A stretch of 32,000 bases of DNA from an uncultured Chloroflexia bacterium (GCA_963704755.1 OY969938.1:1380001-1412000), one strand, 5' to 3'. Shown: positions 1 through 31,487, numbered from the stretch's first letter. Program-made: numbers and translations. Notes: generated by a model from the letters alone, not told the origin.

Positions 1-543
1 CAAATTTTCCCGTATAGAAATTGAATTATTTTAGGGTGGAATAACACACTTAGCAATAACAACCCGATAATCAAGAGTATATACTGGGTGTTCTTTGTGA
101 AAAAAATCAGTATTCCGCTAATAAGAATTACCTGAACCCCAGTCCAAACAACCATCAATATTTCTATTCCACTTGCGAAACCTGAGGTTTTTACATCTAC
201 TCCGCTTCTCTTATATAATGCCATTCTCCCTACCACGTTCATATATGGCCCTGGAAGTCTTCTCCCTGCCAATGTACTCAAGTAAATAATGAGATGCGAG
301 TGGAATTCTCCAGGGATATTAAAAATCTTCGCAATAATTGCCCACAAAATGCCAGAATTGATAGTTACGATAATATATATAGGGATAGTTAGTAACAGAT
401 AAACCCAGTTGATTTCTTCTTTCGAAGATAATACATCCTTAAATCCATTCCATGCTTGAAAACAAATGTAAGCCATTATAAGAACGCTAATAGAAATTCC
501 TAGAATCTTTACGAATAGCGAATTCTTTATATTCTTAAGCATG
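1..543 (-). CDS. Partial CDS (N-terminal ~181 codons; the C-terminus lies beyond the window start). Polytopic membrane protein resembling the flippase-like / lysylphosphatidylglycerol-synthase-TM (UPF0104) family.
   Basis: It is absent from the ORF track because it runs off the edge. Hand translation of the reverse strand from the ATG (complement of 541-543) gives MLKNIKNSLFVKILGISISVLIMAYICFQAW...IIYLSTLAGRRLPGPYMNVVGRMALYKRSGVDVKTSGFASGIEILMVVWTGV... with no stop down to base 1. There are several hydrophobic helices and a GRxLPG..VGR..LYKRxGV motif. It begins a few nt after the stop of the upstream methyltransferase ORF, on the same strand and with the same AT-rich composition. Confidence 0.55.
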
Positions 544-549
544 AGATGC

Positions 550-876
550 TCACTTTTTTTGAAAAAACAAAGTCATGTATGAGCTTTTATTTAATTTTCC
601 CAATACATAATTTATCGGAAAAAGTACTATTCTGAAAAACATGGAATTTGTAAATCTTTCAAGAATTTTATAAAGAAAATTGTTGCTTTCCATATCAGAA
701 TAAATAAATTTAAGCGAAATAACTACTCCCCCAAAATTTCCGGTAAAGCTTTTAATGCCCTTATATTCAAAATCCTCTTTACGAATTAGTTTTCTGATAG
801 TAGAACGCGAGAAAAGAAAAAAGTGCCGGGGAACATCCCATCCTGCCCAATACTTGCCAAAAATTCTGGAGTCCAA
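550..876 (-). CDS. C-terminal fragment of a class I SAM-dependent methyltransferase. It belongs to the same gene as 920..1474, split by a frameshift.
   Basis: The ORF-track protein starts (TTG) DSRIFGKYWAGWDVPRHFF..., the conserved C-terminal block of this methyltransferase family. Reading the same frame upstream gives KPGGWLILNIPNPDSL, which continues directly from the end of ORF 920..1474. Confidence 0.7.
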   Translation of the reverse strand: MDSRIFGKYWAGWDVPRHFFLFSRSTIRKLIRKEDFEYKGIKSFTGNFGGVVISLKFIYSDMESNNFLYKILERFTNSMFFRIVLFPINYVLGKLNKSSYMTLFFQKK

Positions 877-919
877 AGAATCCGGATTAGGAATATTTAA
901 TATTAACCACCCGCCTGGT

Positions 920-1474
920 TTAAAGAATCCTTTTAGTTTCCGTTATAGAGGAGAGCGGATCTTTTAAATGCTCTAATACATCCCAATAAGTTACAACATC
1001 AAAAAAATTATCTTCAAAATTTGATTCCAATAAATCAACATTTCTTACACTTAATCCTAATGTCTCATTCGCGTACTTCGAAGCAATTTCGGAAGTTTCA
1101 ACTCCAAAAGCTTCCCATCCCTTTTCTTTAAATCTCCTGAGCAATAAACCAGTAGCACACCCAACATCAAGAATTCTTCCAGGAAAGCGCACCTTATCCA
1201 TGACCGCAAAATACTTTTTCGTTATAGCAAAGCTTTTATCAATCTTTTGAAATTTACTTTCGTCCGAGTTTATTTTTTGAAAAGCCAAATAGTTGTCTGG
1301 ATAATACAATTCCAGTTCTTTTCCATTTGGGCGCGTTTCAAGAAAATAAAGGCCACATTGTTGACACTGAACTAGCCGAAATTCTCCCCCTAGTTTATGC
1401 AACATATCTTGACCGCTAAATACTAAGGCGAAAGTAGCGCTTCCGCACAATATGCATTGGTTTACTTTCTCCAA
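920..1474 (-). CDS. N-terminal fragment of a class I SAM-dependent methyltransferase: Cys4 zinc-ribbon plus Rossmann motif I.
   Basis: The protein has CILCGS...CQQCG (zinc ribbon), then ILDVGCATG (SAM motif I) and DVVTYWDVLEHLKDP (motifs II/III). It ends ...ETKRIL* exactly where family members continue with KPGG. Confidence 0.8.
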   Translation of the reverse strand: MEKVNQCILCGSATFALVFSGQDMLHKLGGEFRLVQCQQCGLYFLETRPNGKELELYYPDNYLAFQKINSDESKFQKIDKSFAITKKYFAVMDKVRFPGRILDVGCATGLLLRRFKEKGWEAFGVETSEIASKYANETLGLSVRNVDLLESNFEDNFFDVVTYWDVLEHLKDPLSSITETKRIL

Positions 1475-1485
1475 AGAATTACCTT

Positions 1486-2655
1486 TTAATCCTTAATAAG
1501 ATGATCATAAAATACTTCTAACTCATTGGCTCTTTTTTCCCAATTATACTGGGTCTCTGCTATATACCTGGCATTTCCACCCATAATTTTGCGTAATCCC
1601 TCATTGCTTAAGAGAGCAAGGATATTCCTTGCATGCTCGCGAAAATCCGGTTCACATAATATGCCAATATTCTCGTGAGAAAAAACTAATGATATATCTC
1701 CCACATCTGAACTTATGATTGGCTTTCCAATAGCCAAATAATCTGTCAATTTTAAAGGAAGCCTTCCTTGGTTTGCTATAGAGTTTGTTAATGGCAACCA
1801 TAAAATATCACACGCATTAAGGAGATAATTTACTCGACCAATTGGAAGAGCGCCTGTCATTATTACAAATTCCGAATTTGCAATTAATTTTTTTATATCA
1901 AACGGGAAATATCCAATTATAAGAAACAGGATTTTAGGGTTTGTTTTATGCACCTCGTTAATTGTATCGATCATTAGGAGAGCATCTTTGTAAAAGATTG
2001 TTCCTAAATAACCCACAATATGATTAAATGAATTAAGATGCTCGTTTTTTCTGGCTTGATCTATCGGAACCGGATAAAAATTTTCTAAATCTGAGCCATT
2101 AACAATTCTTTTTATTCGCATCTGATCCACACCTAAAGCAATAGCTCTTTCGTATAAACAATTGCAAATTACTGTAGTCCCTTCAGGAATAAGACGAAAT
2201 TTATTTTCAAAGAATGTTTCAATAGGCCTTAATAATAATTTCACTAACGGATTAACTCGTTCTTCGATTGACCCACCTTTACCAAGCCAATCTGCCCAAT
2301 CCAGAAAAATGTGTTTTATCCGTTTTCTAGCCCAAAGTATCGGAATAATGACTGTAGGTCGGGTGTCAAATCCATGAATTAAGTCAAACTTTTTCCCACG
2401 CATCCATAGTATTCTGCGAACAACATTATATAAATCCCAGCCTGATCTCAACGAACCAAAAAGTAAATCGGGCATAAGGACTATCTGAACATTATCAATT
2501 CTTTTCTCTTCTAGAGATATTTTGTTTTTCTCTGAAGTAGCAATTAAATAAACCTCGTGCCCTTTTCGGGCTAAAGATTTTGAAAAATTAAACGCACGCC
2601 AATAAGACCCTTTATAGACCTTGTTATAACAGACCATCAAAATTTTCATAATCAC
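1486..2655 (-). CDS. Glycosyltransferase family 4 (GT-B fold, 389 aa).
   Basis: The N-terminus MKILMVCYN...KGHEVYLIA is typical of a GT4 N-domain. Size and a C-terminal E..G....E-type region fit the family. Its start overlaps the stop of the upstream GT2 by 4 nt (2652-2655). Confidence 0.75.
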   Translation of the reverse strand: MIMKILMVCYNKVYKGSYWRAFNFSKSLARKGHEVYLIATSEKNKISLEEKRIDNVQIVLMPDLLFGSLRSGWDLYNVVRRILWMRGKKFDLIHGFDTRPTVIIPILWARKRIKHIFLDWADWLGKGGSIEERVNPLVKLLLRPIETFFENKFRLIPEGTTVICNCLYERAIALGVDQMRIKRIVNGSDLENFYPVPIDQARKNEHLNSFNHIVGYLGTIFYKDALLMIDTINEVHKTNPKILFLIIGYFPFDIKKLIANSEFVIMTGALPIGRVNYLLNACDILWLPLTNSIANQGRLPLKLTDYLAIGKPIISSDVGDISLVFSHENIGILCEPDFREHARNILALLSNEGLRKIMGGNARYIAETQYNWEKRANELEVFYDHLIKD

Positions 2656-3398
2656 TCTTTAAAAAATATTCCATCCTTCAATCCACGCCAATAAGCTTTA
2701 AAGGATAATATCCGGTTTCTAAATAAAAGACGATAACTCGTTTTTAATGCACTGCAAAATCTCCAGAAAAAGATTATTGGAATTTGAAATTTCTTTGCAT
2801 ATCGCTTAAAAAAAACAACGCTGGACCGCGCCATCCAATAACGTTCGTTTTCAGAATCCGATCCATCGCTAGAAACACTTACTTTATGCCAAATTATTGC
2901 CTTAGGAACTAAATATTGGGGTATTTCAGCTTTATTAAGCCTCATACCAAAGTCACGGTCTTCATAATATAAAAAAAAATGCTCATCAAATAGGCCAATA
3001 CTACCAAAGACTTCTTTAGGAATTAGGAGGGCACAGGCGGTAAGAAAATCTCGTTTAATTATAGTTTCATTCATAAATACCTTTTTTGAGCTCTTTTTTA
3101 CTTCAAGTGTGATTTTATTTAAATCCCCGCCCATTGACCAGATTTTCTCTTTTTTATCGAAGTAACAAATTTCTGGTCCAGTTATGCAGCGGCAATTTTT
3201 TAAAGGCAGGAATAAATTAATTAGCATATCAGGATCACAAACAGTATCATTATTTATAATAAATATAAATTCTGCCCCACAATTTATACAATACTTTATT
3301 CCAATATTAAATCCTCCAGCGAAACCCAAATTTTTCTCAAGCGCAATAATTTCTATATCAGGATGTTTGGCAACTATTTTTTTAATTGAAGTATCCAT
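2652..3398 (-). CDS. Glycosyltransferase family 2, main fragment. The N-terminal ~45 residues lie upstream in another frame.
   Basis: Motifs seen: LEKNLGFAGGFNIG, FIINNDT (DxD region) and YYEDRDFGMR (ED motif). Reading this frame upstream of the annotated Met gives ISFSKIVVVDNGS, the first GT2 acidic motif. Confidence 0.8.
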   Translation of the reverse strand: MDTSIKKIVAKHPDIEIIALEKNLGFAGGFNIGIKYCINCGAEFIFIINNDTVCDPDMLINLFLPLKNCRCITGPEICYFDKKEKIWSMGGDLNKITLEVKKSSKKVFMNETIIKRDFLTACALLIPKEVFGSIGLFDEHFFLYYEDRDFGMRLNKAEIPQYLVPKAIIWHKVSVSSDGSDSENERYWMARSSVVFFKRYAKKFQIPIIFFWRFCSALKTSYRLLFRNRILSFKAYWRGLKDGIFFKE

Positions 3399-3438
3399 TG
3401 AACCATTGTCGACTACTACAATTTTGGAAAATGAAATT

Positions 3439-3543
3439 TCATTTTGACACTTTTAATGAAGAAATACAATCAATGGTATCATCTGGCTTTTTCCAATTTA
3501 CAGTTACTGCAAAAATATTGGGATTACTGGCTAAAACATTCAT
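3439..3543 (-). pseudogene. Detached N-terminal fragment (34 codons) of the GT2 gene at 2652..3398.
   Basis: Hand translation gives MNVLASNPNIFAVTVNWKKPDDTIDCISSLKVSK*, the canonical GT2 start (V.V.NW.....T..CL.SL). Dropping one base from the TTTT run at 3442-3445 fuses it in frame to NEISFSKIVVVDNGS of the downstream ORF. Confidence 0.6.
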
Positions 3544-3721
3544 AAATGTGGGACTATTCCTTTCTTTTATATTAAAATAATAGAAAGCTATAATTACAAA
3601 GAAGCTACGGATCTATATTTCACCAAAATATTTTCCAAAATATAAAATCAATGATGTTGCCTAATCGTATTCAACTTTGAGGTAGAAAAAGTTAAAGCCG
3701 TTTTTAAATTACTTTCCCCCC

Positions 3722-6797: not shown

Positions 6798-7029
6798 TTT
6801 GTAATTACTCAGCCACTTAGAGGATGAGGGTGTTTTTATTATTTTTTGATGGGGTAAAGCCCAGAGCAATCGCATCATGCCAAATTGGCCCTAGCAGGCA
6901 TACTGCAATCGCTCCGAGGTAAAGCCCATATTTGAGGTGTTGCCGCCCGGGATATAATTAGATGGGTAGCGGGGAGGATCCATCCCGAGACACTCCCCGG
7001 TAAGAATTCATACCCATAGCGAGGTTCTC

Positions 7030-9146: not shown

Positions 9147-9188
9147 TCCGCCGGCGGTAACCGTTCAGTCTACCGAGTAAGAACCCCC

Positions 9189-9237
9189 GATTTGAGGCAT
9201 TTGCGGTCGGAGTCTTTGACCGCAAATGCCTCAAATC
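9189..9237. repeat. Perfect 20-bp-stem hairpin, family 1 (GATTTGAGG-TTTGCGG type). Probable terminator of the DinB gene.
   Basis: The arm gatttgaggcatttgcggtc (9189-9208) is the exact reverse complement of 9218-9237, with a 9-nt loop. Related copies lie at 25187 and 27903. Confidence 0.8.
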
Positions 9238-9501
9238 AGGGAGCTTTTTAAGTAAACCCGTAATCCGATTGACTGGTCTCCAGGCCAAATCATAAATCCC
9301 CCCAACCCACTTAGCAAGGGGGCAAGGACCAGCGAGCTATTCCCCCCTTGGAGGTCGTGAAGCATTCAGAATACGCGCATGAATTCTTGAAAACCTGCTA
9401 TCGTATGGCGCCGAATATAGGCCGGGAGGTTCTTCACAGCCTCAACAAGGGGGGCAAAGGGGGGATTCTTTCTGCTTGCGAAGTAAAATATATTTTCCAT
9501 A

Positions 9502-9536: not shown

Positions 9537-9620
9537 ATGTTTAGCAATCAAGTTGAATTAAACGTTTCCAAGAAGTTCGGTAAGAAGGCCTCCCAACCAC
9601 TCACGTGGTCTGGAAAATAG
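9537..9620 (+). CDS. Leader peptide 1 (27 aa, MFSNQVELNVSKKFGKKASQPLTWSGK), with two AAG-AAG lysine codon pairs.
   Basis: Hand translation. It lies in frame inside track ORF 9348..9620 but starts after the promoter. Lys codons are at 9570-9575, 9582-9587 and 9615-9617. It is followed by terminator 1. Confidence 0.6.
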   Translation: MFSNQVELNVSKKFGKKASQPLTWSGK

Positions 9621-9693: not shown

Positions 9694-9798
9694 ATGAACA
9701 GAAACAGCAGTTCCGCAAACATTACCACCCATCTCGATAAGAAGGCCAAGAAGCACATGCCGGATGCAGATCTGGATAAGCGCACTTGCCTGGAATAA
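9694..9798 (+). CDS. Leader peptide 2 (34 aa, MNRNSSSANITTHLDKKAKKHMPDADLDKRTCLE), with two AAG-AAG lysine codon pairs.
   Basis: Hand translation. AAGG lies 5 nt upstream of the ATG. Lys codons are at 9739-9744, 9748-9753 and 9778-9780. It is followed by terminator 2. Confidence 0.55.
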   Translation: MNRNSSSANITTHLDKKAKKHMPDADLDKRTCLE

Positions 9799-9888: not shown

Positions 9889-11103
9889 ATGAGTCTGGAA
9901 CATTTTTCGATCATCGAATCTACACTGCGCGAGGGTGAACAGTTCGTCAATGCATTTTTCACCACCGAGCAGAAAATTCAAATAGCCCACCTGCTGGACG
10001 ATTTTGGGGTGGAATACCTCGAGCTGACCACCCCGGCCGCCTCCACCCAAAGTGCGCGTGACTGCGAAACCATCGCCGGCCTGGGCCTGCGCGCCAAAAC
10101 CCTCACCCATACCCGCTGCAATATCAATGACGTGCGCCAGGCCGTCGAGACCGGTGTGGATGGGGTGGATATTGTGATCGGTACCTCATCCTATCTGCGT
10201 GAGTTCAGCCATGGCAAGAGCATCGACACCATCATCGAAATGGCCCAGGAAGTGTTGGAATATCTGAGCCATTTCAACGTAGAAATGCGCTTCAGCACCG
10301 AAGATTCCCTGCGCAGTGACCCGGCCGACCTCTTCCGGGTGTACGCAGCCGTCGACAAGCTGGGCGTCAACCGGGTCGGCATCGCCGACACGGTGGGAAT
10401 CGGTAACCCCCGCCAGATTTACGAACTGGTCAGTGAACTGCGCTCGCGCGTCCACGCCGATATCGAATTCCACGGCCACAATGACACCGGCTGCGCCATC
10501 GCGAATGCCTTCGCCGCCCTGGAAGCCGGCGCCACCCACATCGATACCAGCATTCTGGGCATCGGCGAACGCAACGGCATCACCCCCCTGGGCGGCCTGG
10601 TCGCCCGCCTGTACGCCATAGATCCCGGGCTGGTATCCAAATACAACCTGCCCATGATGCTGGAGCTCGACCAGACCATCGCCAAAATGGTGGGGGTGGA
10701 CATCCCTTTCAACAATTACATCACCGGTTTCTCGGCCTTCACCCATAAAGCCGGCATCCACGCCAAAGCCGTGCTCAACAACCCCTCAACCTACGAAGTG
10801 CTGCGGCCCGAAGATTTCGGCCTGACCCGCTACATCCACATCGCCCACCGCCTGACCGGCTGGAACGCCATCCGCTACCGCGCCGACCAGTTGAACATCC
10901 CCCTGACCGACGACGAAATCAAAAGTATCACCGAACGGATCAAACAGCTCTCCGACCAGTACAACATTACCCTCGATGAAGTTGACCGGCTGCTCTACGC
11001 GGCCAGCTCGAACGCTGACATTACCGCTGAAACTGTAGTCGAAACCGCTACCCCCTTACTCAATCCGGAAAGGACTTCCCAAAATGGGACAAACGCTCTC
11101 TGA
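9889..11103 (+). CDS. hcs: Homocitrate synthase (AAA lysine pathway).
   Basis: [26 protein letters not shown] and [15 protein letters not shown] are near-identical to the blocks I recall from Thermus thermophilus HCS. At 404 aa the size fits. The genomic context is homoaconitase, HICDH and LysX. Confidence 0.85.
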
Positions 11104-12337
11104 ACAAATTCTTTCGCATGCCTCCGGCCGCTCGATCCGCCCGGGCGACCTGGTTATCGTTGAACCGGAAGTGGTGATGAGCCACAATTCGTTGACTCCC
11201 AGTATTATTAAAATCGCCCAACAGGAATTAGGGATGACCGAGATCCGCCACCCGGAGCGGCTGGTCTTCGTCCTCGACCACGTTTCGCCGCCTTCCACGG
11301 TCGGCACGGCCAATGCGCAGAAAGTGGTCCGTACCTTCGCCCAGGAGAACAATGTGCGCCTGTTCGACGTAGGCCGCGGCATCTGTCACCAGGTGCTGGT
11401 AGAAGAACGTATCGCTGCGCCCGGCAAAATTGTGGTGGGCTCCGATTCGCACTCCACCGGCTATGGTTCGGTATGCGCCTTCGGCACTGGCATGGGCTCC
11501 ACCGACGTGGCCCTGGTGTGGGCCACCGGGCGCACCTGGCTGCGCGTGCCCGAAACGATCCGCATCCGGGTGCATGGCCGCTTTAGCCAATGGGTGGGGG
11601 CCAAAGACCTGGCCCTGAAAATTTGCCAGACCCTGACCATTGCCGGCGGAAACTACGCCGCGCTAGAATATCACGGCCTGGATTGGCTGGACCTGCCCGG
11701 CCGCCAGACCCTGGCCAGCATGGCCGTCGAGGTTGGCGCGAAAGTCGGCCTGGTACCGCCCAGCGGGGAAGCTGCCCGCGATTGGGATGTACCGGATTGG
11801 CTGTTCGTCGATCCTGAAGCGAGCTATGCCCGAACGGTGGACATCGATTTGGACGAATTACACCCACAGGTTTCCATCCCGCACGCGGTCGACCACGTCG
11901 CGGACCTGCCCGAAGTGGCCGGCACCCATGTGGATATGATCTTCCTGGGTACCTGTACCAACGGGCGCTACGAAGATATGCGCGCCGCCGCCAATATCCT
12001 GCGCGGCCGGCACGTCGCCAGCAGTGTGCGCATGCTGGTTACCCCCGCCTCCAGCCGCGAGATGGCCCGCGCGGCCGCCGATGGCACCCTGACCGAGCTG
12101 ATCGAAGCCGGCGCCGTGCTGACCTCGCCCGGCTGCGGCGCCTGTATGGGCCGCCACCAGGGTACCCTGGGTGAAAACGACGTCTGCCTGTCCACCGGCA
12201 ACCGCAATTTCCGTGGCCGTATGGGCGCGCCCACCTCGCAAATCTACCTGGCCTCCGCTGAAGTGGCCGCCGCCACCGCCCTGACCGGGGTCATCACCCA
12301 CCCGGCTGAGGTTGCCGTGGAAAACGCCCGCGCATAA
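11084..12337 (+). CDS. hacA: Homoaconitase / 3-isopropylmalate-dehydratase-type large subunit (short archaeal-type, 417 aa).
   Basis: Aconitase family motifs are present: [16 protein letters not shown] and SPGCGACMG (Fe-S Cys ligands). It overlaps hcs by 20 nt. The homoaconitase role is inferred from context, not from sequence alone. Confidence 0.8.
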
Positions 12338-12366
12338 AACTGATATTGCACATTAATAAATTAATG

Positions 12367-12582
12367 AGGGCAAAAAGCGCCGGCCAAACAGCCCATGGGT
12401 TTGTTAAACCAGCGCTGTGCCCCCCTTCCCCGCTTCCCCCCAAATCAAAAACCGATTTGGAGGGAAGGGCCAGATTCCTCCCCTAAAATCCGCACTTTGG
12501 ATTTTGGGGGAGGCCAGGAGGGGGCAAAAAGCGCCGGCCAACCAACCCATTGGCTTGTTAAACTAGCGCTGTGCCCCCTTTC
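12367..12582. repeat. Two direct repeats of about 62 bp, each a hairpin, flanking two smaller hairpins within the hacA-hacB spacer.
   Basis: gagggcaaaaagcgccggccaaacagcccatgggtttgttaaaccagcgctgtgcccc (12367-12425) versus gagggggcaaaaagcgccggccaaccaacccattggcttgttaaactagcgctgtgcccc (12518-12578). The inner hairpins are cttccccccaaatc/gatttggagggaag and cctcccctaaaatcc/ggattttgggggagg. Confidence 0.75.
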
Positions 12583-12637
12583 CCGAACCTGTTACCTAAA
12601 TCTTCATTATCATTTAGCTGATAAAAAGGAGTTATCG

Positions 12638-13132
12638 ATGCCTAGAGTATGGAAATTTGGATCCGATGTGGATACCGACCAGATCGTGCCCGGGCGCTAC
12701 GCGCCTTACATGCGCCCGGACGCGGATGTCGGCGATGCGGCCTTCATCGAAGCCCGCCCGGAGTTTGCCCAAAACGCCCGCCCAGGCGACGTGATCGTCG
12801 CCCTGGACAATTTCGGCTGCGGCTCCTCGCGGGAATACGCGGTCGAGGCGCTCAAACGGCGCCAGGTCGGCGCGATCATTGCCCGCGGATACGCGCGCAT
12901 CTTCTTCCGCAACGCGCTTAACCTGGGTATTCCCCTCATCACCGCCCCCGACGTGGTCGAGGCCCTCCAGGACGGCGACGAGATCAGCCTGGACCTGGTC
13001 AAAAGCGAACTCTCCCGCGGGAACGAAATGTTTATTCTGCCCGAATTTCCCGAATTCGCCCGCGAGATCCTGGCAGCCGGCGGGATCGTGCCCTACGTAC
13101 GCGAACATCATCGCTTCCCGGGGGAACAATGA
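12638..13132 (+). CDS. hacB: Homoaconitase / isopropylmalate-dehydratase-type small subunit (164 aa).
   Basis: The sequence reads MPRVWKFGSDVDTDQIVPGRY...GCGSSREYAV...IIARGYARIFFRNALNLG. The AAGGAG RBS lies 7 nt upstream of the ATG at 12638. The track ORF 12395.. is an upstream read-through across the repeat region. Confidence 0.85.
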   Translation: MPRVWKFGSDVDTDQIVPGRYAPYMRPDADVGDAAFIEARPEFAQNARPGDVIVALDNFGCGSSREYAVEALKRRQVGAIIARGYARIFFRNALNLGIPLITAPDVVEALQDGDEISLDLVKSELSRGNEMFILPEFPEFAREILAAGGIVPYVREHHRFPGEQ

Positions 13133-14136
13133 GTTCTGCCCAATTGTGCGTCATCGAGGGAGATGGGATCGGCCACGAGGTCATCCCGGCGGCCGTGCAG
13201 GTGCTGCGTATGGCCGTCCCCCAGTTGGAAACAATCCAGGCCGAAGCCGGCTGGGATTGTTTCCAACGCAGAGGGGTCTCAGTCCCACCCGAAACCCTGG
13301 AGGCTTTACGCGCCTGTGGCGCCGGGTTGTTCGGGGCGGTCTCTTCCCCTTCCCATAAAGTCGAGGGTTACCGCAGCGCCATCCTGACCATGCGCCAGGA
13401 GCTGGACCTGTACGCCAACCTGCGCCCGGTCCGCAGTCTGCCGGGGGTCTCTCCCCGGACAGGCATCGACTTCGTCATCGTGCGCGAGAATACCGAGGGA
13501 TTGTACGCCGGGCGTGAGCGCCTGGAAGGCGACACGGCCATCGGTAAGCGCATCATCACCCGCCAGGCTTCCCGGCGGATCGGCCTGCGCGCGCTGGAGT
13601 TGGCCCGTTCGCGACCGCGCAAACGCCTGACCATCGTCCACAAAGCCAACATCCTGCCGGTGACGGATGGGCTTTTCCGCGATACCGTCCGTGAGGCGGC
13701 CGCCGAGACCGGCGCAGAGTCGGCCGGTGTGGTCATCGAGGAGGTGCTGGTGGATAACGCCGCTTATCAAATCGCCGCCAACCCGGAGCGCTTCGACGTC
13801 ATTGTAACTACCAACCTGTTCGGCGACATCCTTTCGGACGAAAGCGCGGTCTGGTGTGGCGGGATGGGCCTGGCCCCTTCGCTGAACTGGGGCGACGGCC
13901 TGGCCCTGGCCGAGCCGGTCCACGGCTCTGCACCCGATATCGCCGGTAAAGGCATCGCTAACCCGATCGCGGCCATCCTCAGCGCGGCCCTGCTGGCGCG
14001 TTATGCCTGGAACATGAACGCCGCCGCCGAACGGATCGAAAGCGCGGTTTCCATCTGCCTGGCCGCCGGTCAAGCCGGCGCCGGGGCCACCACGGCCGAA
14101 ATCACCCAGGCCATCCTCCGGCACCTGGATGAATAA
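13129..14136 (+). CDS. Homoisocitrate dehydrogenase (isocitrate/isopropylmalate dehydrogenase family, 335 aa).
   Basis: Motifs seen: LYANLRP, VRENTEGLY, NLFGDILSDE and GSAPDIAGKGIANP. It overlaps the hacB stop (ATGA). The HICDH assignment comes from cluster context. Confidence 0.8.
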   Translation: MSSAQLCVIEGDGIGHEVIPAAVQVLRMAVPQLETIQAEAGWDCFQRRGVSVPPETLEALRACGAGLFGAVSSPSHKVEGYRSAILTMRQELDLYANLRPVRSLPGVSPRTGIDFVIVRENTEGLYAGRERLEGDTAIGKRIITRQASRRIGLRALELARSRPRKRLTIVHKANILPVTDGLFRDTVREAAAETGAESAGVVIEEVLVDNAAYQIAANPERFDVIVTTNLFGDILSDESAVWCGGMGLAPSLNWGDGLALAEPVHGSAPDIAGKGIANPIAAILSAALLARYAWNMNAAAERIESAVSICLAAGQAGAGATTAEITQAILRHLDE

Positions 14137-14140
14137 GAAA

Positions 14141-14800
14141 TAAACCACGAAGAATTTAACCACGGAGGCACGGACCCTGGCACCGCCCGCCAGGGCAGGT
14201 GGGGCACGGAGAAGAAAAGAGTTTATCCCTGAGCACACAGAGGCCACAGAGAAGAAAGAGGAGAAATGAGTAAAATTGATGGCCGAAAGGACAAAGACCT
14301 GCAGCGGATCGGCCCGGTCTCCAGACCGAGGCCGCTCTTCATTGCAAATTAGTGGTTCGCTGCGATTCGGGTCGTGCGTTTGGTTGTCGTTGCGAGCGGT
14401 TTGTGCGACCCTGCACCTGCGGTTCTGGGCAGGTGAGCAATATCAACAATACCCGAATAGCTCAATGGCCAGCGTTGAGATTGCCACTGGCAGCAAAAAA
14501 CGCTGCCTTCACAACGACAACCAAACGCAAAACCTGAATCGCAGGCAATTCCTTATTTGCGTAGAAGAGCGGCCTCGGTCTGGAGACCGGGCCGATCCAC
14601 CTTAGGCCATCGCTCTTTTAAACAGGACCTTCTCATCCTCTCTTTCTTTTCTCTGTGAACTCTGTGTACTCTGTGGTTAAATTCCTTTTTTCTCCGTGCT
14701 CTGAGATTAATCCCTTTCTTCTCCGTGTTCCACCTGCCCTGGCGGGCGGTGCCAGGGTCCGTGCCTCCGTGGTTTATCTTTCTTCGTGGTTATTTTTTCT
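14141..14800. repeat. Nested imperfect palindrome of about 660 bp. It has outer CTCCGTG/CTCTGTG-type arms, a 35-bp core inverted repeat and an inner inverted repeat around a unique centre of about 110 bp.
   Basis: 14158-14202 is the exact reverse complement of 14730-14774 (45 bp). The core ggatcggcccggtctccagaccgaggccgctcttc (14306-14340) is the reverse complement of 14564-14598. The inner inverted repeat is cgattcgggtcgtgcgtttggttgtcgttg versus caacgacaaccaaacgcaaaacctgaatcg. Confidence 0.85.
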
Positions 14801-14867
14801 CTGTGGTTATTCTTTCTTTACCTAACCCATATTTATTCCCGGCAAGACGCCGGACAAGGAATTCTCA

Positions 14868-15716
14868 ATGAAAATCGGTGTTTTATTTTCTCGACTACGT
14901 GTGGAAGAGAAATGGATCTTTGAAGCCCTGGAAAAACGCGGGGTGGACTATGACCGTATCGACGACCGCCGGGTCACTTTCAACGTGACCAACCCGGGCG
15001 AATGGCTGCAATACGACGTGGTGCTGGTCCGCAGCCTGTCGTATCACAATGGACTATACGCAGCCCAGGTGCTCAACTCCTGGGACATCCCCACGGTCAA
15101 CTCGGCCCGCGTCGCGGCCACCTGCGGGGACAAACTGGTGACCACGACGGCCCTGGCCCAGGCCGGCATCCCCCAGCCGCAGGTCTGGACGGCCTTTTCG
15201 ACGGACGCTGCCCTGGAAATCATGGACCAGATCGGCTACCCGGTGGTGCTGAAGCCGCTGGTGGGGTCGTGGGGGCGTTTGTTATCCAAAGTCAACGACC
15301 GGGACGCGGCCGAGACCATTCTGGAGCACAAAGAAGTGATGGGCGGCCCGCAGCATAGTGTGATTTACATCCAGGAATACATCCACAAACCCAGCCGGGA
15401 CATCCGCAGTTTTGTGATCGGCGACCACACCGTGTGCGCCATCTACCGTGAGGCCGAACACTGGATCACCAATACCGCCCGCGGCGGCAAAGCCGAAGTC
15501 TGCCCGGTGACGCCCGAACTGGACCAGTTGAGCGTCGCCACGGCCCAGGCGGTCGGCGGCGGGGTCATCGCCGTGGATATTCTCGAAGATCCCGAACGCG
15601 GTTACCTGGTCAACGAGGCCAACCACACCATGGAATTCCATTCCACCGTGCCCCTCACCGGTGTGGATATCCCCGGCATGCTGGTGGATTACGCCCTTTC
15701 GATTGCGAGGAAGTGA
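14868..15716 (+). CDS. lysX: LysX: ATP-grasp alpha-aminoadipate--LysW ligase (RimK/LysX family).
   Basis: [53 protein letters not shown] and [11 protein letters not shown] closely match the T. thermophilus LysX blocks as I recall them. Size is 282 aa. Confidence 0.85.
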
Positions 15717-15784
15717 GGGGAAGGGGAGCAGGCAACGAGGCAATAAGGGATAAGGCAACAAGGTAATCAGTGAAGCCCTAAAGT

Positions 15785-15865
15785 GGATCGGCCCGGTCTC
15801 CAGACCGAGGCCGCTCTTATTGGCCGGCCAATAAGAGCGGCCTCGGTCTGGAGACCGGGCCGATC
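15785..15865. repeat. 81-bp palindrome made of two abutting copies of the same 35-bp core found in the 14141-14800 element.
   Basis: ggatcggcccggtctccagaccgaggccgctctta ttggccggccaa taagagcggcctcggtctggagaccgggccgatc. The left flank (15722-15765) is rich in GGCAACGAGG-type words; the right flank carries their complement. Confidence 0.85.
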
Positions 15866-15984
15866 GCTTTGGCCAATTGAGCTTCCTGCCAGATTACTGT
15901 GGTGACTGATCGCCTCCTTGCCTTCTTACCTCATCCCCTCATCGCCTCATCGCCTCCTTGCCCTCTTACCTTATTGCCTTTTTG

Positions 15985-16176
15985 CCTCATCGCCTCGTTG
16001 CCTCATCGCCTCGTTGCCTCATCCCCTCGTTGCCTCATCGCCTCGTTGCCTCATCCCCTCGTTGCCTCATCCCCTCGTTGCCTCATCCCCTCGTTGCCTC
16101 ATCCCCTCGTTGCCTCATCCCCTCGTTGCCTCATCCCCTCGTTGCCTCATCCCTTATTGCCTCATCCCCTCGTTGC
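15985..16176. repeat. Tandem array of 12 copies of a 16-bp unit, CCTCATC(G/C)CCTCGTTG. Degenerate copies extend from about 15910 to about 16195.
   Basis: Direct reading. The units are in register every 16 nt from 15985. Only position 8 (G/C) and one unit (cccttattg) vary. Confidence 0.9.
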
Positions 16177-16332
16177 CTTCTCCCTCCCCTCTTTCCGCCG
16201 TATAATAGTTCCCAACAAGTTAACTAAATCGGGGTTATCCGCAAGCGCCGGTTAGAACTATAAGAATTTTCTCTTCAAAAAAATATCTCTCCTGCCTGCA
16301 CGCCCCTTAAAATTATCTGCATCGAGGAAAAT

Positions 16333-17085
16333 ATGGAATTCAAACCCATCTGGCGCGAAGAATTACACGTGCGCGCCTACGAAACGGATTTTAATAACCG
16401 TTGGAAACCGACCAGTTATTTCCAGGCGATGGAAGAAGCCGCCACCAACCATGCCCGTCACCTGGGCTATGATTATCCTGACATGCTGGCGCAAGGCATG
16501 GTCTGGGTGCTGACCCGCCTGAAAATCTATTTCTACGACTATCCCAGCATTCCCGACCCGGTTATTATCGAGACCTGGCCGCGGGGCATCCAGCAAAAGA
16601 TCTTTTTCACCCGCGATTTCCGCCTGTCTTCTCCCGAAGGCCGGCTTTATGCGGCCGCCACCTCTGCCTGGCTGCTGATCGACCCGGTCCAGCGCCGCAT
16701 GCTGCGCCCCGACCGCCTGTCCAACCATTTACCTCAGAACGAAGGCCATTTCGCGGTGAACGAACTGCTGGAAAAGATTCCCCAGCCGGATAATTTGCAG
16801 GAATGCGCCCGCGTCAAAGCCGAATACAGCGACATCGACATGATCGGGCACGTCAACAACGCCCGTTACATCGACTGGGTCAGCAACTGCTTCCCGATGG
16901 AACAATACCAAAATTCCCGCCTGGACTGGCTGCAAATCAATTACAACAACGAGGTCAAGGCAGGTGAAACGGTCGTCCTTTCGGCTGCCCAGAACAGCGC
17001 CGAACCCAACCGCTGGTTCATCCTGGGCAGCAACCCGTCCAGCGGAATGCCTAATTTCGAAGTCGATCTGGGGTGGCGGGAGTAG
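16333..17085 (+). CDS. Acyl-ACP thioesterase (FatA/FatB-like double hotdog, 250 aa).
   Basis: Motifs seen: YETDFNNRWKP, MVWVLTRLKI and DIDMIGHVNNARYIDW (catalytic D..GHVNN). GAGGA lies upstream. Confidence 0.8.
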   Translation: MEFKPIWREELHVRAYETDFNNRWKPTSYFQAMEEAATNHARHLGYDYPDMLAQGMVWVLTRLKIYFYDYPSIPDPVIIETWPRGIQQKIFFTRDFRLSSPEGRLYAAATSAWLLIDPVQRRMLRPDRLSNHLPQNEGHFAVNELLEKIPQPDNLQECARVKAEYSDIDMIGHVNNARYIDWVSNCFPMEQYQNSRLDWLQINYNNEVKAGETVVLSAAQNSAEPNRWFILGSNPSSGMPNFEVDLGWRE

Positions 17086-17150
17086 CTGTTAGCGGTTAGC
17101 GGTTGGCTTTTAGCGATTGGCCGTTAGCGGTTGGCCGTTAGCGGTCAGCT
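17086..17150. repeat. Heptamer-period tandem repeat arm (GTTAGCG / GTTGGCC variants).
   Basis: agctgttagcggttagcggttggcttttagcgattggccgttagcggttggccgttagcggtcagctg. It is complementary in type to the arm at 17330-17436. Confidence 0.8.
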
Positions 17151-17294
17151 GCAATGGAGGGTGTCGTTGAGCGCGGATGAAGGTAATGCCATCGATTTAC
17201 CTAAAGAAAGATATTTCCAGGCGTGCCTTCAACAAACTAGCAACGCTTGTCTATAATCACCTTGGGCACTAAGAAATGCTCCAGCTAAACCAAA

Positions 17295-17324
17295 AAGCAG
17301 GCCGGTCAAAAGACCGGCCTGCTT
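17295..17324 (-). terminator. 13-bp GC-rich hairpin. Probable terminator for the serpin gene (T-run on the minus strand).
   Basis: aagcaggccggtc aaaa gaccggcctgctt. On the minus strand the stem is followed by tttggttt. Confidence 0.6.
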
Positions 17325-17329
17325 CCTAA

Positions 17330-17436
17330 AAGCTAATGGCTAACAGCTAACCGCTAACGGCTAACCGCTAATCGCCAACAGCTAATCGCCAACAGCTAAT
17401 CGCCAACAGCTAATCGCCAACAGCTAACAGCTACCC
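17330..17436. repeat. Heptamer/14-mer tandem repeat arm (GCTAACAGCTAAC..., then 4 copies of CTAATCGCCAACAG).
   Basis: Direct reading. The first 26 nt (ctaaaagctaatggctaacagctaac) recur at 20966-20993. Confidence 0.8.
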
Positions 17437-17437
17437 G

Positions 17438-18817
17438 CTAATTGCTCGTTCCCGGATTCTCCATCCGGCCCATGAACAAAACCGACCCGCTGGTGTTATC
17501 CAGGATCATGAAGATGAACGGGTGATCCAGCGTGACGGTCACCTCATTCGCCATCATCGAGGTCAGACCGGCCACCACGCCGGTCGCAGCAGCCGCTTCG
17601 GTGCCGTCTTCGTCCACATTGACATAGGCCTTGTGAACGACATTGTTGATGTACAGGTCCTGGCGGCCATCCATCTTCGAAAAATCGGCCGCGGATGGGT
17701 CGAAAGCATCCGTCATTCCCAGCGCTTTGAGCGTGTCGCTCAAGCCGAAGGATGATTCGATCTTGAAGCTGGGCATGCTCAAGGTGACTTCCGCCGGTTG
17801 CAGGCCATCCCGGATCTTCTGGATCTGGTCGGCCGTGAGCGACTGCTCGAACGAACCCAGACTGCCTGCATCCGGCATAACTGCGATCATGGCGTAATTC
17901 CCGCCGGCATAGGGCATTTCGACCGCCTGGTAGCCATCGCTCTTCAGGTAAGTGAGCGAATCGCGGACGTGCATGGTCGGCGTTTGGATGGTCGAGCCGC
18001 CGGCTAGGGTGAAATCGGCCGGGGCTGTCTGGCTCTTATCGAACGGGTACTGCCAGGCTGCCTTGAAATAGATCGCGTTGGCCAGCACCAGGCGGGTCAT
18101 CGGGTCGATTGCCCCTTGCGGAATAAGGTCCTGGATTTTGTTGGCGGTCTGGTCGGCCACCCACTGGTTGATCTGCTGGCGGACTGTCTCAGAATCCTGG
18201 AAGTCCACCGGGTAGATCCCGCTGCCATAATATTGCGCCAGGGTATCCAGAAAGGCCGGCAGGAAATCGAAATCATGCTGAGCCCAGATCGAATTGGCGA
18301 TATCCAGCTTGAAGCCACCCTTTGTCGAGCTATTCTGGCCGCCCTCCAGGGACTGGTCCAGGGCATTGAAGGCCGGGTTCAGCCGGCCGGCAGGCCGGCT
18401 GAAGTGCAGCGTGTCCGCCATCTGGGTGGCGGTATCGTTATTGGCGCCGCTGGCGGTCATCGCCAGGGCCAGTGAAATACTGTAAGGTGAAAAGAACAGG
18501 TTGCCATCCTGGCCGCGCAACTGCTGGTAAAGCGCCGTCGCAAAGGCGGTGTTATCGCTGACCAGTTGCTGAATGTCGTCCTGCGAGACGGTTGCATCAG
18601 TTATGCGGGGCTGGTTCGAGACCAGTTCGACCCCGGGTTGGGCAGGTGTTTTCACGGTATCCTCCCCGGTCTGGGTGGGAGCTGGCGTTATGGGGACGGC
18701 CGGGCCGACGGGAGTCACCGTTTGCGCCGGTGAAGCGGTTGCAGCCGGGCTGCAGGCGGTCAGCCCCAGAAGGAACACCAGGCCAAAAAGAAATATATTA
18801 CGGATATTGGCTTTCAA
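17438..18817 (-). CDS. Serpin-family protease inhibitor, lipoprotein form (459 aa).
   Basis: Signal peptide plus lipobox FLLGLTAC, then a Pro/Thr linker. The serpin body includes NLFFSPYSISLALAM, NAIYFKAAW and the C-terminal signature DHPFIFMILDNTSGSVLFMGRMENP. Confidence 0.85.
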   Translation of the reverse strand: MKANIRNIFLFGLVFLLGLTACSPAATASPAQTVTPVGPAVPITPAPTQTGEDTVKTPAQPGVELVSNQPRITDATVSQDDIQQLVSDNTAFATALYQQLRGQDGNLFFSPYSISLALAMTASGANNDTATQMADTLHFSRPAGRLNPAFNALDQSLEGGQNSSTKGGFKLDIANSIWAQHDFDFLPAFLDTLAQYYGSGIYPVDFQDSETVRQQINQWVADQTANKIQDLIPQGAIDPMTRLVLANAIYFKAAWQYPFDKSQTAPADFTLAGGSTIQTPTMHVRDSLTYLKSDGYQAVEMPYAGGNYAMIAVMPDAGSLGSFEQSLTADQIQKIRDGLQPAEVTLSMPSFKIESSFGLSDTLKALGMTDAFDPSAADFSKMDGRQDLYINNVVHKAYVNVDEDGTEAAAATGVVAGLTSMMANEVTVTLDHPFIFMILDNTSGSVLFMGRMENPGTSN

Positions 18818-18952
18818 ATCGCACTCCTTTCACTGAGCAGTCCTCTCTGATTATAGCAAGCCGGTCAATTTCTACCCCATAGACGCCAAAAATCCCCGGC
18901 AGGTTCCTCTATTGATTTACCTTTGGTTACAACTCAGGCTAGTTCTGAAATT

Positions 18953-19009
18953 AGGGGTGTTTTATTATTTTTCGCATGCTTCGCATGCGAAAAATAATAA
19001 AACACCCCT
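18953..19009. repeat. Perfect 27-bp-stem hairpin, family 2 (AGGGGTGTTTTATT...CGCATGC type).
   Basis: aggggtgttttattatttttcgcatgc (18953-18979), loop ttc, then the exact reverse complement at 18983-19009. Confidence 0.85.
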
Positions 19010-19298
19010 CTCTTTTCCGGTAGCTGGCCGTTCCGGCCAAAGCATTCTCGGGTTGGAAACCCGAGCTGCGCTGCTTAAACGGCAGCTAAAGCTGCACCTA
19101 CAAAAACACAAAGCCCCACCTTCGTAGGGCTCCTTCTTGGCAAGGTGCGATCCTATAGCCAGAGTTATGCCCGTCCGGTGTTTTCTCAGGTTGGGAACCC
19201 GAGTTACCCATCAAGAGAACCTGGCGAAGGCCAGGTTTTGTGTTTTTGTTGCCGCGACCTCGGTCGCCACCGGGCGCCGGGCTCACCAAAACCTCGAT

Positions 19299-20558: not shown

Positions 20559-20618
20559 GAATAATCCTGAATTCGCAATCTACAACAACCCCATTATTAT
20601 AGCACACAATTTCTATTA

Positions 20619-21003
20619 GGAAGGGACCAGGCAACGAGGCGACAAGGCAACGAGGTGCAGGTGTAGGGTGGGTGCAGGGCTCGAATATTACCCGAGCGGA
20701 TTATCCATCTGCATGACATACCAAACCTTGCCCGTAACCCACCGTTTTACATTCTACAGGTAAAGGGACCAGGCAACTAGGCGACAAGGCAAAGAGGTGT
20801 AGAGTGGGTGCAGGGCTCAAAAATTACCCGAGCGGATTACCGATCGGCATAACATACCAAGCTTGCCCGTAACCCACCGTCTGGTTGTAAAATGGTGGGT
20901 TACGGGCAAGCTTGATACGTCAGAAAACTTAATATTTGCCAATTTTCTCAATGAGCCCTGCACCCACCCTTGCTAAAAGCTAATGGCTAACAGCTAACAG
21001 CCA
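20619..21003. repeat. Composite intergenic repeat: two direct repeats of about 140 bp, a 21-bp-stem hairpin, a distal 17-bp inverted repeat, and word-repeat arms shared with the 15.7-kb and 17.3-kb elements.
   Basis: gggaccaggcaacgaggcgacaaggcaacgagg...cttgcccgtaacccaccg (20619-20761) is repeated from 20764. The hairpin is aagcttgcccgtaacccaccg/cggtgggttacgggcaagctt type. gggtgggtgcagggctc pairs with gagccctgcacccaccc. Confidence 0.75.
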
Positions 21004-21023
21004 ATGTCCTCGTCTTCTTCCCC

Positions 21024-25186: not shown

Positions 25187-25241
25187 CCCGAATTTGATAT
25201 GTTTGCGGTGGCAAAGCCACCGCAAACATATCAAATTCGGG
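25187..25241. repeat. Perfect 26-bp-stem hairpin, family 1, downstream of GH3.
   Basis: cccgaatttgatatgtttgcggtggc, loop aaa, gccaccgcaaacatatcaaattcggg. Confidence 0.85.
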
Positions 25242-25271
25242 TTTCTCACCGGATGTAGTTAAATTACGGGG

Positions 25272-25329
25272 AGGTCGTTTTTATTATTTTTTGCATGCGA
25301 AGCGTGCAAAAAATAATAAAAACGACCTG
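25272..25329. repeat. 27-bp-stem hairpin, family 2 variant (one G-T pair).
   Basis: aggtcgtttttattattttttgcatgc, loop gaa, gcgtgcaaaaaataataaaaacgacct. It is followed by ggctgagtagttac. Confidence 0.85.
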
Positions 25330-25361
25330 TTCTTCTGCGATGGCTGAGTAGTTACATTTAA

Positions 25362-27902: not shown

Positions 27903-27955
27903 CCGAATTTGAGGTGTTTGCGGGGGCTTCGCCCCCGCAAACACCTCAAATTCGG
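27903..27955. repeat. Perfect 25-bp-stem hairpin, family 1, in the divergent GT39/pepF intergenic region.
   Basis: ccgaatttgaggtgtttgcgggggc, loop ttc, gcccccgcaaacacctcaaattcgg. Confidence 0.85.
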
Positions 27956-28122
27956 GAACTTTCTAACATAAGTCTGAGTCCTCCGTGGTCATCTTTCTCC
28001 CCAGCCGGCAAAACCCCTGGCCGCATGTGGGGTAAAATTACCTTAACGCAACGCATCAAGATTTGCGTTCTATCCAACGAAAAACCTGTATAAAAACCTA
28101 AACCTTTTAGAAAGGCTGCAAT

Positions 28123-29940: not shown

Positions 29941-29999
29941 AGGGGTGTTTTTATTGTTTTTCGCGTGCGAAGCACGCGAAAAACAATAAAAACACCCCT
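29941..29999. repeat. Perfect 28-bp-stem hairpin, family 2.
   Basis: aggggtgtttttattgtttttcgcgtgc, loop gaa, gcacgcgaaaaacaataaaaacacccct. The flanks are homologous, in inverse orientation, to those of the 18953 copy. Confidence 0.85.
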
Positions 30000-31331: not shown

Positions 31332-31343
31332 CGGTGATAAACC

Positions 31344-31394
31344 CGAAAATAATGGAATTGCAATGGCAAAGCCATTGCAATTCCATTATTTTCG
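31344..31394. repeat. Perfect 24-bp-stem hairpin (AT-rich stem, TGGC-AAA-GCCA tip). Probable terminator.
   Basis: cgaaaataatggaattgcaatggc, loop aaa, gccattgcaattccattattttcg. Confidence 0.85.
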
Positions 31395-31487
31395 AGAACT
31401 TCCTCAACCCAAGAAACTGGTAAAATTCTTCAATTCAAATTCCTAAATAAATTTCCTTATGGCCCCAGGCCGATCCATGGAGTGAAA

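Follow-up and report, generated by a model that had tools for sequence, protein, structure and literature searches.

A long modular palindrome between hicdh and lysX in an uncultured Chloroflexia bacterium, probably an intergenic repeat mosaic

A palindrome of about 680 bases in a lysine operon

We analyzed a 32,000-nucleotide stretch of DNA from an uncultured Chloroflexia bacterium (GCA_963704755.1 OY969938.1:1380001-1412000; hereafter the window, with positions counted from its first letter), in which one long, imperfect and non-coding palindrome of ~680 bases separates two genes of the lysine (alpha-aminoadipate) operon. Upstream lies hicdh (13129-14136, plus strand; homoisocitrate/isopropylmalate dehydrogenase family, HICDH; Pfam Iso_dh, 6e-92), whose product has a complete C-terminus, ending ..ITQAILRHLDE* as in relatives, and downstream lies lysX (14868-15716, plus strand), the gene for LysW--2-aminoadipate ligase, which matches Pfam LysX_preATP_grasp and RimK and whose homologues are named LysX. 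These Pfam matches agree with the gene context given in an earlier reading of this DNA made from the sequence alone (the sequence-only reading). Further upstream in the operon are the genes for homocitrate synthase (9889-11103) and for the large (11084-12337) and small (about 12640-13132) subunits of homoaconitase. By sequence, the LysX homologues place the host in the Anaerolineae (Chloroflexota).

The palindrome spans 14137 to about 14815, and in a gapped alignment of the left arm with the reverse complement of the right arm its symmetry begins one base past the HICDH stop codon. The sequence-only reading had described a nested palindrome of about 660 bp at 14141-14800 with three layers of symmetry; the palindrome and all three layers were recovered at the coordinates given, both by reading the sequence and with a repeat finder, but the limits had to be widened on account of a third 17-nt right-arm unit at 14799-14815. 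At the outermost left, two units of 15-17 nt (14137-14157) are the reverse complement of CTYCGTGGTTWAWTTYT. They are followed by the left copy of a 60-nt outer block (14158-14217), which holds a perfect 45-mer (14158-14202) and a 29-nt segment (14175-14203) between two GCACGGA words, and by an array of CACAGAG and GAAGAAA words (14218-14270) that is about 80% symmetric with 14640-14685, the right arm having an extra 29-nt unit relative to it. The outer arms join the core module at 14271-14305, a junction that aligns poorly with 14599-14639 and where the GATGGCC..AAAGG flank of the core unit is shifted by about 13 nt compared with the flanks of a second core pair described below.

The left copy of the core unit (GGATCGGCCCGGTCTCCAGACCGAGGCCGCTCTTC; 14306-14340, plus strand) resembles a repetitive extragenic palindromic (REP) unit with a 12-bp imperfect hairpin, and its right copy is a perfect inverted copy (14564-14598, minus strand). 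Between the two copies, an inner inverted repeat (left arm 14341-14395, right arm 14509-14563, about 78% identical) encloses a unique centre of 113 nt (14396-14508), in line with the repeat of about 55 bp around a centre of about 110 bp that had been described. To the right, the junction and right word array (14599-14714) contain CTCTGTG three times at 10-nt spacing and two 29-nt units, followed by the right copy of the 60-nt outer block (14715-14774), in which 14730-14774 is the perfect 45-mer, and by the outermost right arm (14775-14815, plus strand) with its 17-nt units CTCCGTGGTTTATCTTT, CTTCGTGGTTATTTTTT and CTCTGTGGTTATTCTTT, the first starting at 14765 within the outer block. What is left before lysX (14816-14867, plus strand) carries the lysX ribosome-binding site AAGGAA. 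The perfect 45-bp inverted repeat (14158-14202 / 14730-14774) can be extended to 84 nt at 88% identity, or to 60 nt with 2 mismatches, and 11 of the 12 CTCYGTG words in the window fall within the palindrome, 4 on the minus strand on its left side and 7 on the plus strand on its right.

Overall the arms are about 69% identical in the gapped alignment, and very unevenly so: perfect blocks of 45 and 35 nt stand among blocks of 75-80%, the junction is unalignable, and whole units of 17 and 29 nt have been gained or lost. By our own calculation, a perfect 35-nt run would arise with a probability of ~2e-4 at a background identity of 78%. Neutral divergence of one old inverted duplication would not produce such uneven arms, and the pattern would fit separable modules, some of them constrained or recently copied. 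Within the outer block, the non-repetitive 29-nt segment between the GCACGGA words is mirrored exactly in both arms, which suggests that the two block copies derive from each other or from a dispersed unit, and not from independent accretions. Fold-back reads can produce palindromes. An assembly artefact of that kind, a chimera, is scarcely credible here, given arms that differ by substitutions and whole-unit indels, an asymmetric junction, intact flanking genes in an operon collinear with that of relatives, a core that recurs in the next spacer, and repeats of similar style in other spacers of the window.

The core doublet recurs between unrelated arrays

The core 33-mer GATCGGCCCGGTCTCCAGACCGAGGCCGCTCTT occurs in four mismatch-free copies at two loci in the window. 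The second locus (15769-15882), which had been overlooked, lies 1.2 kb downstream in the 616-nt spacer between lysX and an acyl-ACP thioesterase gene, and consists of a perfect palindrome of 80 nt (15786-15865) that has no interior and is accompanied by related flanks (GGCC.AAAG.) of about 15 nt; its DNA fold reaches -58 kcal/mol (z = -14.4). It sits amid inverted tandem arrays of an 8/16-nt unit (GGCAACGAGG / CCTCGTTGCCTCATCC; 15717-16190) that extend 54 nt to its left and about 290 nt to its right and are unrelated to the arms of the palindrome. The element is thus modular, because its core doublet recurs between unrelated arrays and its arm identity is uneven. No chance matches (zero) are expected for a core 23-mer or for an outer-block 28-mer, and the copy at 15786-15865 is, at sequence level, the strongest evidence of dispersal; it also answers the objection that neither core nor arms might recur elsewhere. 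The fragment of outer-arm sequence reported at 27975-27995 is a real dispersed copy and corresponds to one lone 17-nt unit (CTCCGTGGTCATCTTTC; 27981-27997, plus strand) upstream of a plus-strand gene, but as evidence it is weak, having 1 mismatch to a degenerate consensus of which 0.12 matches are expected per whole window.

In its organization the core behaves like a REP sequence, being a short imperfect-palindrome unit that forms inverted doublets at both loci, with a 223-nt spacer at the first and none at the second (15786-15825 / 15826-15865). Assignment to the canonical REPs, whose membership tag is a terminal GTAG or CGTC tetranucleotide (PMC3733652), was rejected on that tag: GTAG is found near one of the four copies (14561-14564, 2 nt from the stem) and CGTC near none of the four. 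An exact search with the core 23-mer returned 0 matches in GTDB genomes, JGI metagenomes and IMG/VR (the source genome not being among these), and blastn of the whole spacer against PLSDB plasmids returned no match.

Perfect inverted repeats around a short segment immediately upstream of a gene would also suit an invertible switch (inverton), in which the 35-bp or 45-bp repeats would be recombinase sites around 223 or 527 bp and the orientation of that segment would control lysX. We consider such a switch very improbable, since the 35-bp repeats at 15786-15865 have essentially no interior and so cannot be one, the interior at the first locus is itself largely palindromic, no recombinase gene was found in the window, and 13900-16400 has no promoter-like site.

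Relatives point to an insertion in the spacer

The collections searched contain no sister strain, the closest non-self LysX being 80% identical, and the empty-site comparison was accordingly made by spacer length, at a level above that of DNA alignment between strains. We fetched 84 related loci (given below as L numbers), 13 of which have HICDH directly upstream of LysX. In 11 of these 13, all Anaerolineae, the HICDH-LysX spacer measures 2, 9, 15, 15, 15, 18, 19, 32, 33, 38 or 76 nt, compared with 731 nt in the window, 720 nt in L014 and 462 nt in L029, where lysW lies inside it. Because the spacers of relatives are short, the C-terminus of HICDH is intact and 52 nt of ordinary spacer, of a size resembling the entire spacer of relatives, are left before lysX, the palindrome is an insertion as judged against these relatives.

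The 720 nt of L014 are unrelated sequence, made up of CAGGATR heptamer words, a palindromic unit of ~95 nt present three times and then inverse CATCCTG words, and they read as an independent, parallel expansion in the same spacer. Searching all window spacers against the 84 loci with blastn matched no repeat module, only a conserved leader region ahead of the operon, and the centre showed no similarity to 1.36 Mb of related genomes. A remnant of lysW in the window spacer was rejected, no LysW-like open reading frame (ORF) being present there and the closest relatives lacking lysW at that position; lysW stands between HICDH and LysX in L029 and precedes LysX in L054 and L058. Two further arrangements were seen near lysX: in L054 (9445-9938) two palindromic copies of ~115 nt (CCAGTCTCTGAGYGGAGG...CCTCCGCTCAGRRACTGG) flank lysW just upstream of lysX, and in L010 (9800-10001) the HICDH frame stays open for about 25 codons beyond its customary end and enters an array of TNACTGA heptamers just upstream of lysX.

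The element carries no coding or known-RNA content

The ORFs at 14276-14605 (109 aa) and 14352-14537 (61 aa) have no Pfam match, consistent with the earlier judgement that the centre holds no convincing ORF. Rfam gave 0 matches at gathering thresholds across the whole window, and at E <= 10 only a vertebrate lncRNA model on the arms, at 17 bits against a gathering score of 55, which is spurious. The suggestion that the centre is a cargo non-coding RNA found no backing, as it has no Rfam match, an ordinary fold on both strands (z = -1.7 and -1.6) and no counterpart in the related genomes. Pfam searches of the window proteins found no transposase, recombinase or REP-associated tyrosine transposase (RAYT), and neither the window nor the collections of genomes, metagenomes, viruses and plasmids (source genome not included) yielded a second full-length copy of the element. 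A replication origin or terminus at the palindrome was ruled out, there being no skew shift there.

These data bear on a further explanation, that the whole 680 bp transposed as a unit, as a single mobile miniature inverted-repeat transposable element (MITE) of the foldback type. The Foldback elements of Drosophila have long terminal inverted repeats built of short tandem units, and the palindrome has several features of this kind: its symmetry is nearly continuous from 14137 to 14815, its arms differ by whole tandem units as those of foldback elements do, the exactly mirrored 29-nt segment indicates arms that share ancestry as copies, and relatives have a short spacer here. Its parts are nevertheless separable, with the core doublet standing alone between unrelated arrays (15769-15882) and the 17-nt unit alone at 27981; moreover, the junction (14271-14305 / 14599-14639) is asymmetric, a target-site duplication is absent, and the searches above gave no further full copy. 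Together these observations make transposition as a unit improbable. The nested MITE insertions that had been proposed are partly supported: of the options given in the sequence-only reading, a nested origin from repeat elements agrees best with the data, namely with the core standing alone in the second spacer and with the short spacers of relatives, but a MITE in the strict sense does not, for lack of a target-site duplication and of a parent insertion sequence.

Extreme folding potential

The RNA of the spacer (14137-14867) has a minimum free energy of -437 kcal/mol, compared with -232 +/- 7 in shuffled sequences (z = -27.6), and its predicted fold is a single giant hairpin in which 220 long-range pairs span the centre and helices of 60 and 35 bp run without interruption. 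The folding potential of the element is thus extreme, and the very long duplex that had been foreseen upon transcription holds, at 220 predicted pairs in place of about 270 bp. The core likewise forms a hairpin of its own, as had been noted, but a modest one, with a 12-bp imperfect stem and z = -1.8. If transcribed, the element is likely an RNase III substrate through the predicted duplex of ~220 bp.

Such a structure could also be a selected cis-regulatory device, with the hairpin serving as a terminator, insulator or processing/stability site and the lysX promoter lying within or just past the right arm. The layout is terminator-like in that a U-rich run, UUAUUUUUUCU (14790-14800), comes after the stem base CCACGAAGAA ... 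UUCUUCGUGG and an A-rich run stands upstream; the 35-nt core is invariant across its four copies; and the exact fit of array hairpins between stop and start codons in relatives suggests that they are tolerated or used at the RNA level. However, neither strand of 13900-16400 yielded a sigma-70-like promoter, and what follows the hairpins of relatives is a ribosome-binding site and not a U-tract. Most relatives have 2-76 nt at this position, so that the structure is dispensable for the pathway, and control by lysine seems to sit in leader peptides ahead of the operon. A standard scan for intrinsic terminators flagged only the small core hairpins, whose tails are weak. On balance, we regard a selected regulatory role as quite improbable.

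Inverted-array hairpins are widespread in the lineage

Tandem Repeats Finder was run on the 84 related loci and the window, 1.39 Mb of Anaerolineales DNA in all. Arrays of period 7 dominated, at 180, while periods 6 and 8 accounted for 32 and 39, and pairs of arrays of the same unit within 1.5 kb were inverted in 53 cases versus direct in 22. Fourteen loci contain a total of 25 adjacent inverted-array hairpins of 55-90 nt, in which 3-5 heptamer units precede the reverse complement of the same units. Eighteen of the 25 lie between co-directional genes, where one side of the hairpin abuts the stop codon of the preceding gene (-18 to +5 nt) and the other stops 2-26 nt short of the following start codon, just ahead of the ribosome-binding site. 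An array hairpin stands directly upstream of lysX in L044, L057 and L058, and directly downstream of it in L048 and L081. The hairpin-bearing relatives are L031, L034, L044, L048, L050-L052, L054, L057, L058, L061, L080 and L081 (for example L044:950-1016 and L058:9920-9976), and the heptamer GAATGCA / AATGCAG is common to several different genomes.

The outer arms of the palindrome share this layout, as inverted arrays of the same units that run from 1 nt past the stop codon to 52 nt before the ATG, and can be read as a variant of the lineage's array-hairpin class whose units are longer and whose "loop" is far larger; the class itself has period 7 and loops of 0-40 nt, and the "loop" here comprises about 370 nt of other modules. 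Within the window, three consecutive spacers end in inverted tandem arrays, of the CTCYGTG type (14137-14815), of CCTCGTTGCCTCATCC (15717-16190) and of TAGCGGT (17080-17448).

Some array pairs in relatives enclose genes. Small genes of the TIGR02436 four-helix-bundle family, the family of proteins from 23S rRNA intervening sequences, are bracketed by heptamer arrays, mostly inverted, at L045:3009-3561, L068:5419-6029, L034:3403-3869, L031:12936-13417, L049:11968-12440, L058:20072-20558 and L052:5162-5660. In five of the five cases tested, a count that has no matched control, the minimum free energy fold showed a stem of 43-56 bp with the whole TIGR02436 gene in its loop. A tblastn search with the four-helix-bundle cassette protein found no match in the window.

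A proposed composite origin for the palindrome

Taking these results together, we favor, with a probability of roughly 0.55, a composite reading in which the palindrome is a genome-specific repeat mosaic, similar to REP doublets (REPINs) and bacterial interspersed mosaic elements (BIMEs), nested in an array hairpin of the lineage within the lysine operon, the probability covering both the proposed origin and the proposed effect on RNA. An array hairpin of the lineage type would have occupied the space between stop codon and ribosome-binding site, and its centre would have been colonized by an inverted core doublet with a unit of ~35-50 nt. This doublet may then have gained a further 223-nt insert, the 55-nt inverted repeat around the 113-nt centre, or may represent the long form of its module. 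Modules would spread or be renewed by mechanisms that act on hairpin or cruciform DNA, for example insertion at the centres of palindromes, which is reported for REP dimers, while array slippage and template switching between the arms would have reshaped the arms and left some blocks perfect. The operon transcript would read through the element and form an imperfect duplex of ~220 bp with perfect helices of 60 and 35 bp, and RNase III would cut that duplex, uncoupling the fates of the hicdh and lysX segments of the mRNA.

Several observations weigh against this composite reading. As far as mobility is concerned, no transposase or RAYT is encoded in the window, target-site duplications are absent at 14137 / 14815, at the limits of the inner module (about 14278 / 14612) and at the second core pair, the symmetry fading gradually into the arrays, and the core lacks the canonical GTAG/CGTC tag of REPs. 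The known copy number of the core is 2 loci in 32 kb, and these loci, being only 1.2 kb apart, could reflect local duplication instead of genome-wide dispersal. The exactly mirrored 29-nt segment speaks against independent insertions for at least the outer block and for an inverted duplication or conversion as its origin. Units in the arms repeat every 9-10, 17 or 29 nt and not every 7, so that their link to the heptamer hairpins of relatives is one of architecture and position, not of sequence. Finally, read-through and cleavage by RNase III are predictions.

The element matches no named family, and we rate it as an intergenic repeat mosaic, which repeat dynamics can explain even in so extreme a form. 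Bacteria do not normally maintain long palindromes stably, and one of ~680 bp amid a conserved amino-acid biosynthesis operon is a natural test case in which to ask how DNA of this kind is tolerated and what it does to polycistronic mRNA.

The more interesting outcome is a lineage-wide class of intercistronic inverted-array hairpins. In its full form this idea, which we hold to be unlikely, is that the Anaerolineales possess a class of hairpins made of inverted short-unit arrays, whose loops would serve as landing sites or carriers for cargo from REP-like palindromes to TIGR02436-type genes, and which would be excised or processed by RNase III as an mRNA counterpart of rRNA intervening sequences. 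We found no description of intercistronic inverted-array hairpins, some with genes in their loops, in the searchable literature. If the class exists, the 680-bp palindrome would be its most elaborate non-coding example. If array hairpins are processing sites or insertion targets, they would bear on operon architecture in a major, poorly studied phylum and on the origin of REP-like families outside the Proteobacteria, and would affect genome annotation, in that spurious ORFs cross repeats and some upstream ORFs enter them.

Other repeats and genes of the window

The spacer downstream of lysX contains, at 15900-16190, 12-18 copies of the 8/16-nt tandem repeat CCTCGTTGCCTCATCC, and a spurious 118-aa ORF (15899-16255) crosses these repeats. 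In the spacer that follows, inverted arrays of the TAGCGGT heptamer (17080-17151, about 10 copies, and 17322-17448, about 15) abut the stop codons of convergent thioesterase and serpin genes and enclose a 170-nt centre with a terminator-like hairpin (17296-17325); at a period of 7 nt the heptamer puts TAG in all three reading frames. Another mosaic spacer (20559-21023) holds a 136-nt direct repeat (20621-20724 / 20763-20860), a palindrome of 69 nt (20852-20920) and, at 20969-21004, GCTAACA heptamers that resemble those of 17322-17448. The direct repeat opens with GGCAACGAGG units, in which the repeat unit of 15900-16190 appears as its reverse complement.

Hairpin repeats of ~55-60 nt are also found at gene ends, in two further families: CCGAATTTGAGGTGTTTGCGG...CCGCAAACACCTCAAATTCGG at 9188-9240, 25188-25241, 27903-27956 and 31343-31396, and GGGGTGTTTTTATTATTTTTCGC...GCGAAAAATAATAAAAACACCCC at 18952-19010, 25271-25330 and 29941-29999, with a partial copy at 6826-6848. 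The stems of both families co-vary among copies, and the two are likely genome-specific REP-like elements or terminators.

Upstream of the homocitrate synthase gene lie two short lysine-rich leader ORFs (9537-9620 and 9694-9798; MFSNQVELNVSKKFGKKASQPLTWSGK and MNRNSSSANITTHLDKKAKKHMPDADLDKRTCLE), each followed by a GC-rich hairpin and a T-run, and the second is kept in relatives (L001:1584-1685, ..VKQVKKQQPDEDLEGRVTLG plus terminator). This arrangement looks like lysine leader-peptide attenuation, which is known in Thermus. Within the operon, the spacer between the homoaconitase subunit genes (12338-12639) measures 302 nt, where the relatives L001 and L003 have an overlap or 25 nt, and contains 63-nt direct repeats (12368-12430 and 12522-12584) around palindromic C/G-rich hairpins, with an RNA fold at z = -8. 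At 245 aa, the longest reading frame available for the small subunit (12395-13132) exceeds the 164 aa of relatives and probably starts too early. At the beginning of the window, 1-3600 is low in GC (28-38%, compared with about 58% elsewhere); this island, with its genes for glycosyltransferases and a methyltransferase, probably represents a polysaccharide-synthesis segment acquired horizontally.

Comparison with known systems

Among mobile elements, MITEs such as Correia/NEMIS of Neisseria and the cyanobacterial Nezha are co-transcribed as hairpins that RNase III can cleave. Like them, the window element is small, lies in a spacer, and has inverted ends and no coding capacity, but it is palindromic nearly throughout and not only at its termini, with no target-site duplication, parent insertion sequence or second full copy found in the searches described above. 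The intervening sequences of 23S rRNA form a stem that is cut by RNase III, sometimes with a four-helix-bundle ORF in the loop, and the TIGR02436 array stems of relatives resemble them in having a long stem of inverted flanks with cargo in the loop; the window element differs in lying between protein-coding cistrons, in having no TIGR02436 gene and in that its cleavage is a prediction.

The BIMEs of E. coli combine REPs in alternating orientation with other motifs and are thought to act on mRNA stability. As modular mosaic repeats in intergenic or intercistronic positions, including positions within operons, they are close in design to the window element, whose sequences are unrelated, whose scale is far larger and which includes short tandem arrays.

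Short tandemly repeated heptamers are also known from cyanobacteria as short tandemly repeated repetitive sequences (STRRs). The TAACTGA repeats of Beggiatoaceae, Cyanobacteria and Bacteroidetes are described as direct, with one inverted set only, in the Beggiatoa genome (PMC4679880), and the TNACTGA repeats before lysX in L010 are that same heptamer. As in these filamentous bacteria, the arrays of the Anaerolineales consist of ~7-nt tandem units in spacers, often just upstream of start codons; in contrast to them, they typically form inverted pairs, and in the window their periods are 7, 8/16 and 9-29 nt.

For the core itself, the closest parallel is with inverted REP doublets mobilized by RAYTs (Bertels & Rainey 2011, PMC3116915; Di Nocera et al. 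2013, PMC3733652). It departs from REPINs in having no consistent GTAG/CGTC tag, in that no RAYT was seen in the window, in the position of its doublets between inverted tandem arrays, and in that one doublet has a 223-nt interior, compared with a usual 1-100 nt. It agrees with REP dimers and REPINs in being a short imperfect-palindrome unit that forms extragenic inverted doublets able to fold into one large hairpin, with a unit identical across copies and flanks that vary. REP units measure 20-40 nt and number tens to hundreds of extragenic copies in a genome, where they also flank the gene for their cognate RAYT, a Y1 HUH transposase; the 32 kb of the window contain four copies of the core and encode no transposase-like protein. 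REP dimers have spacers of 1-100 bp, DNA can be inserted between the partners, and dimers are regularly embedded in longer palindromes, including in the Chloroflexi member Thermomicrobium roseum (PMC3733652), which provides a precedent for the nested doublet of the window.

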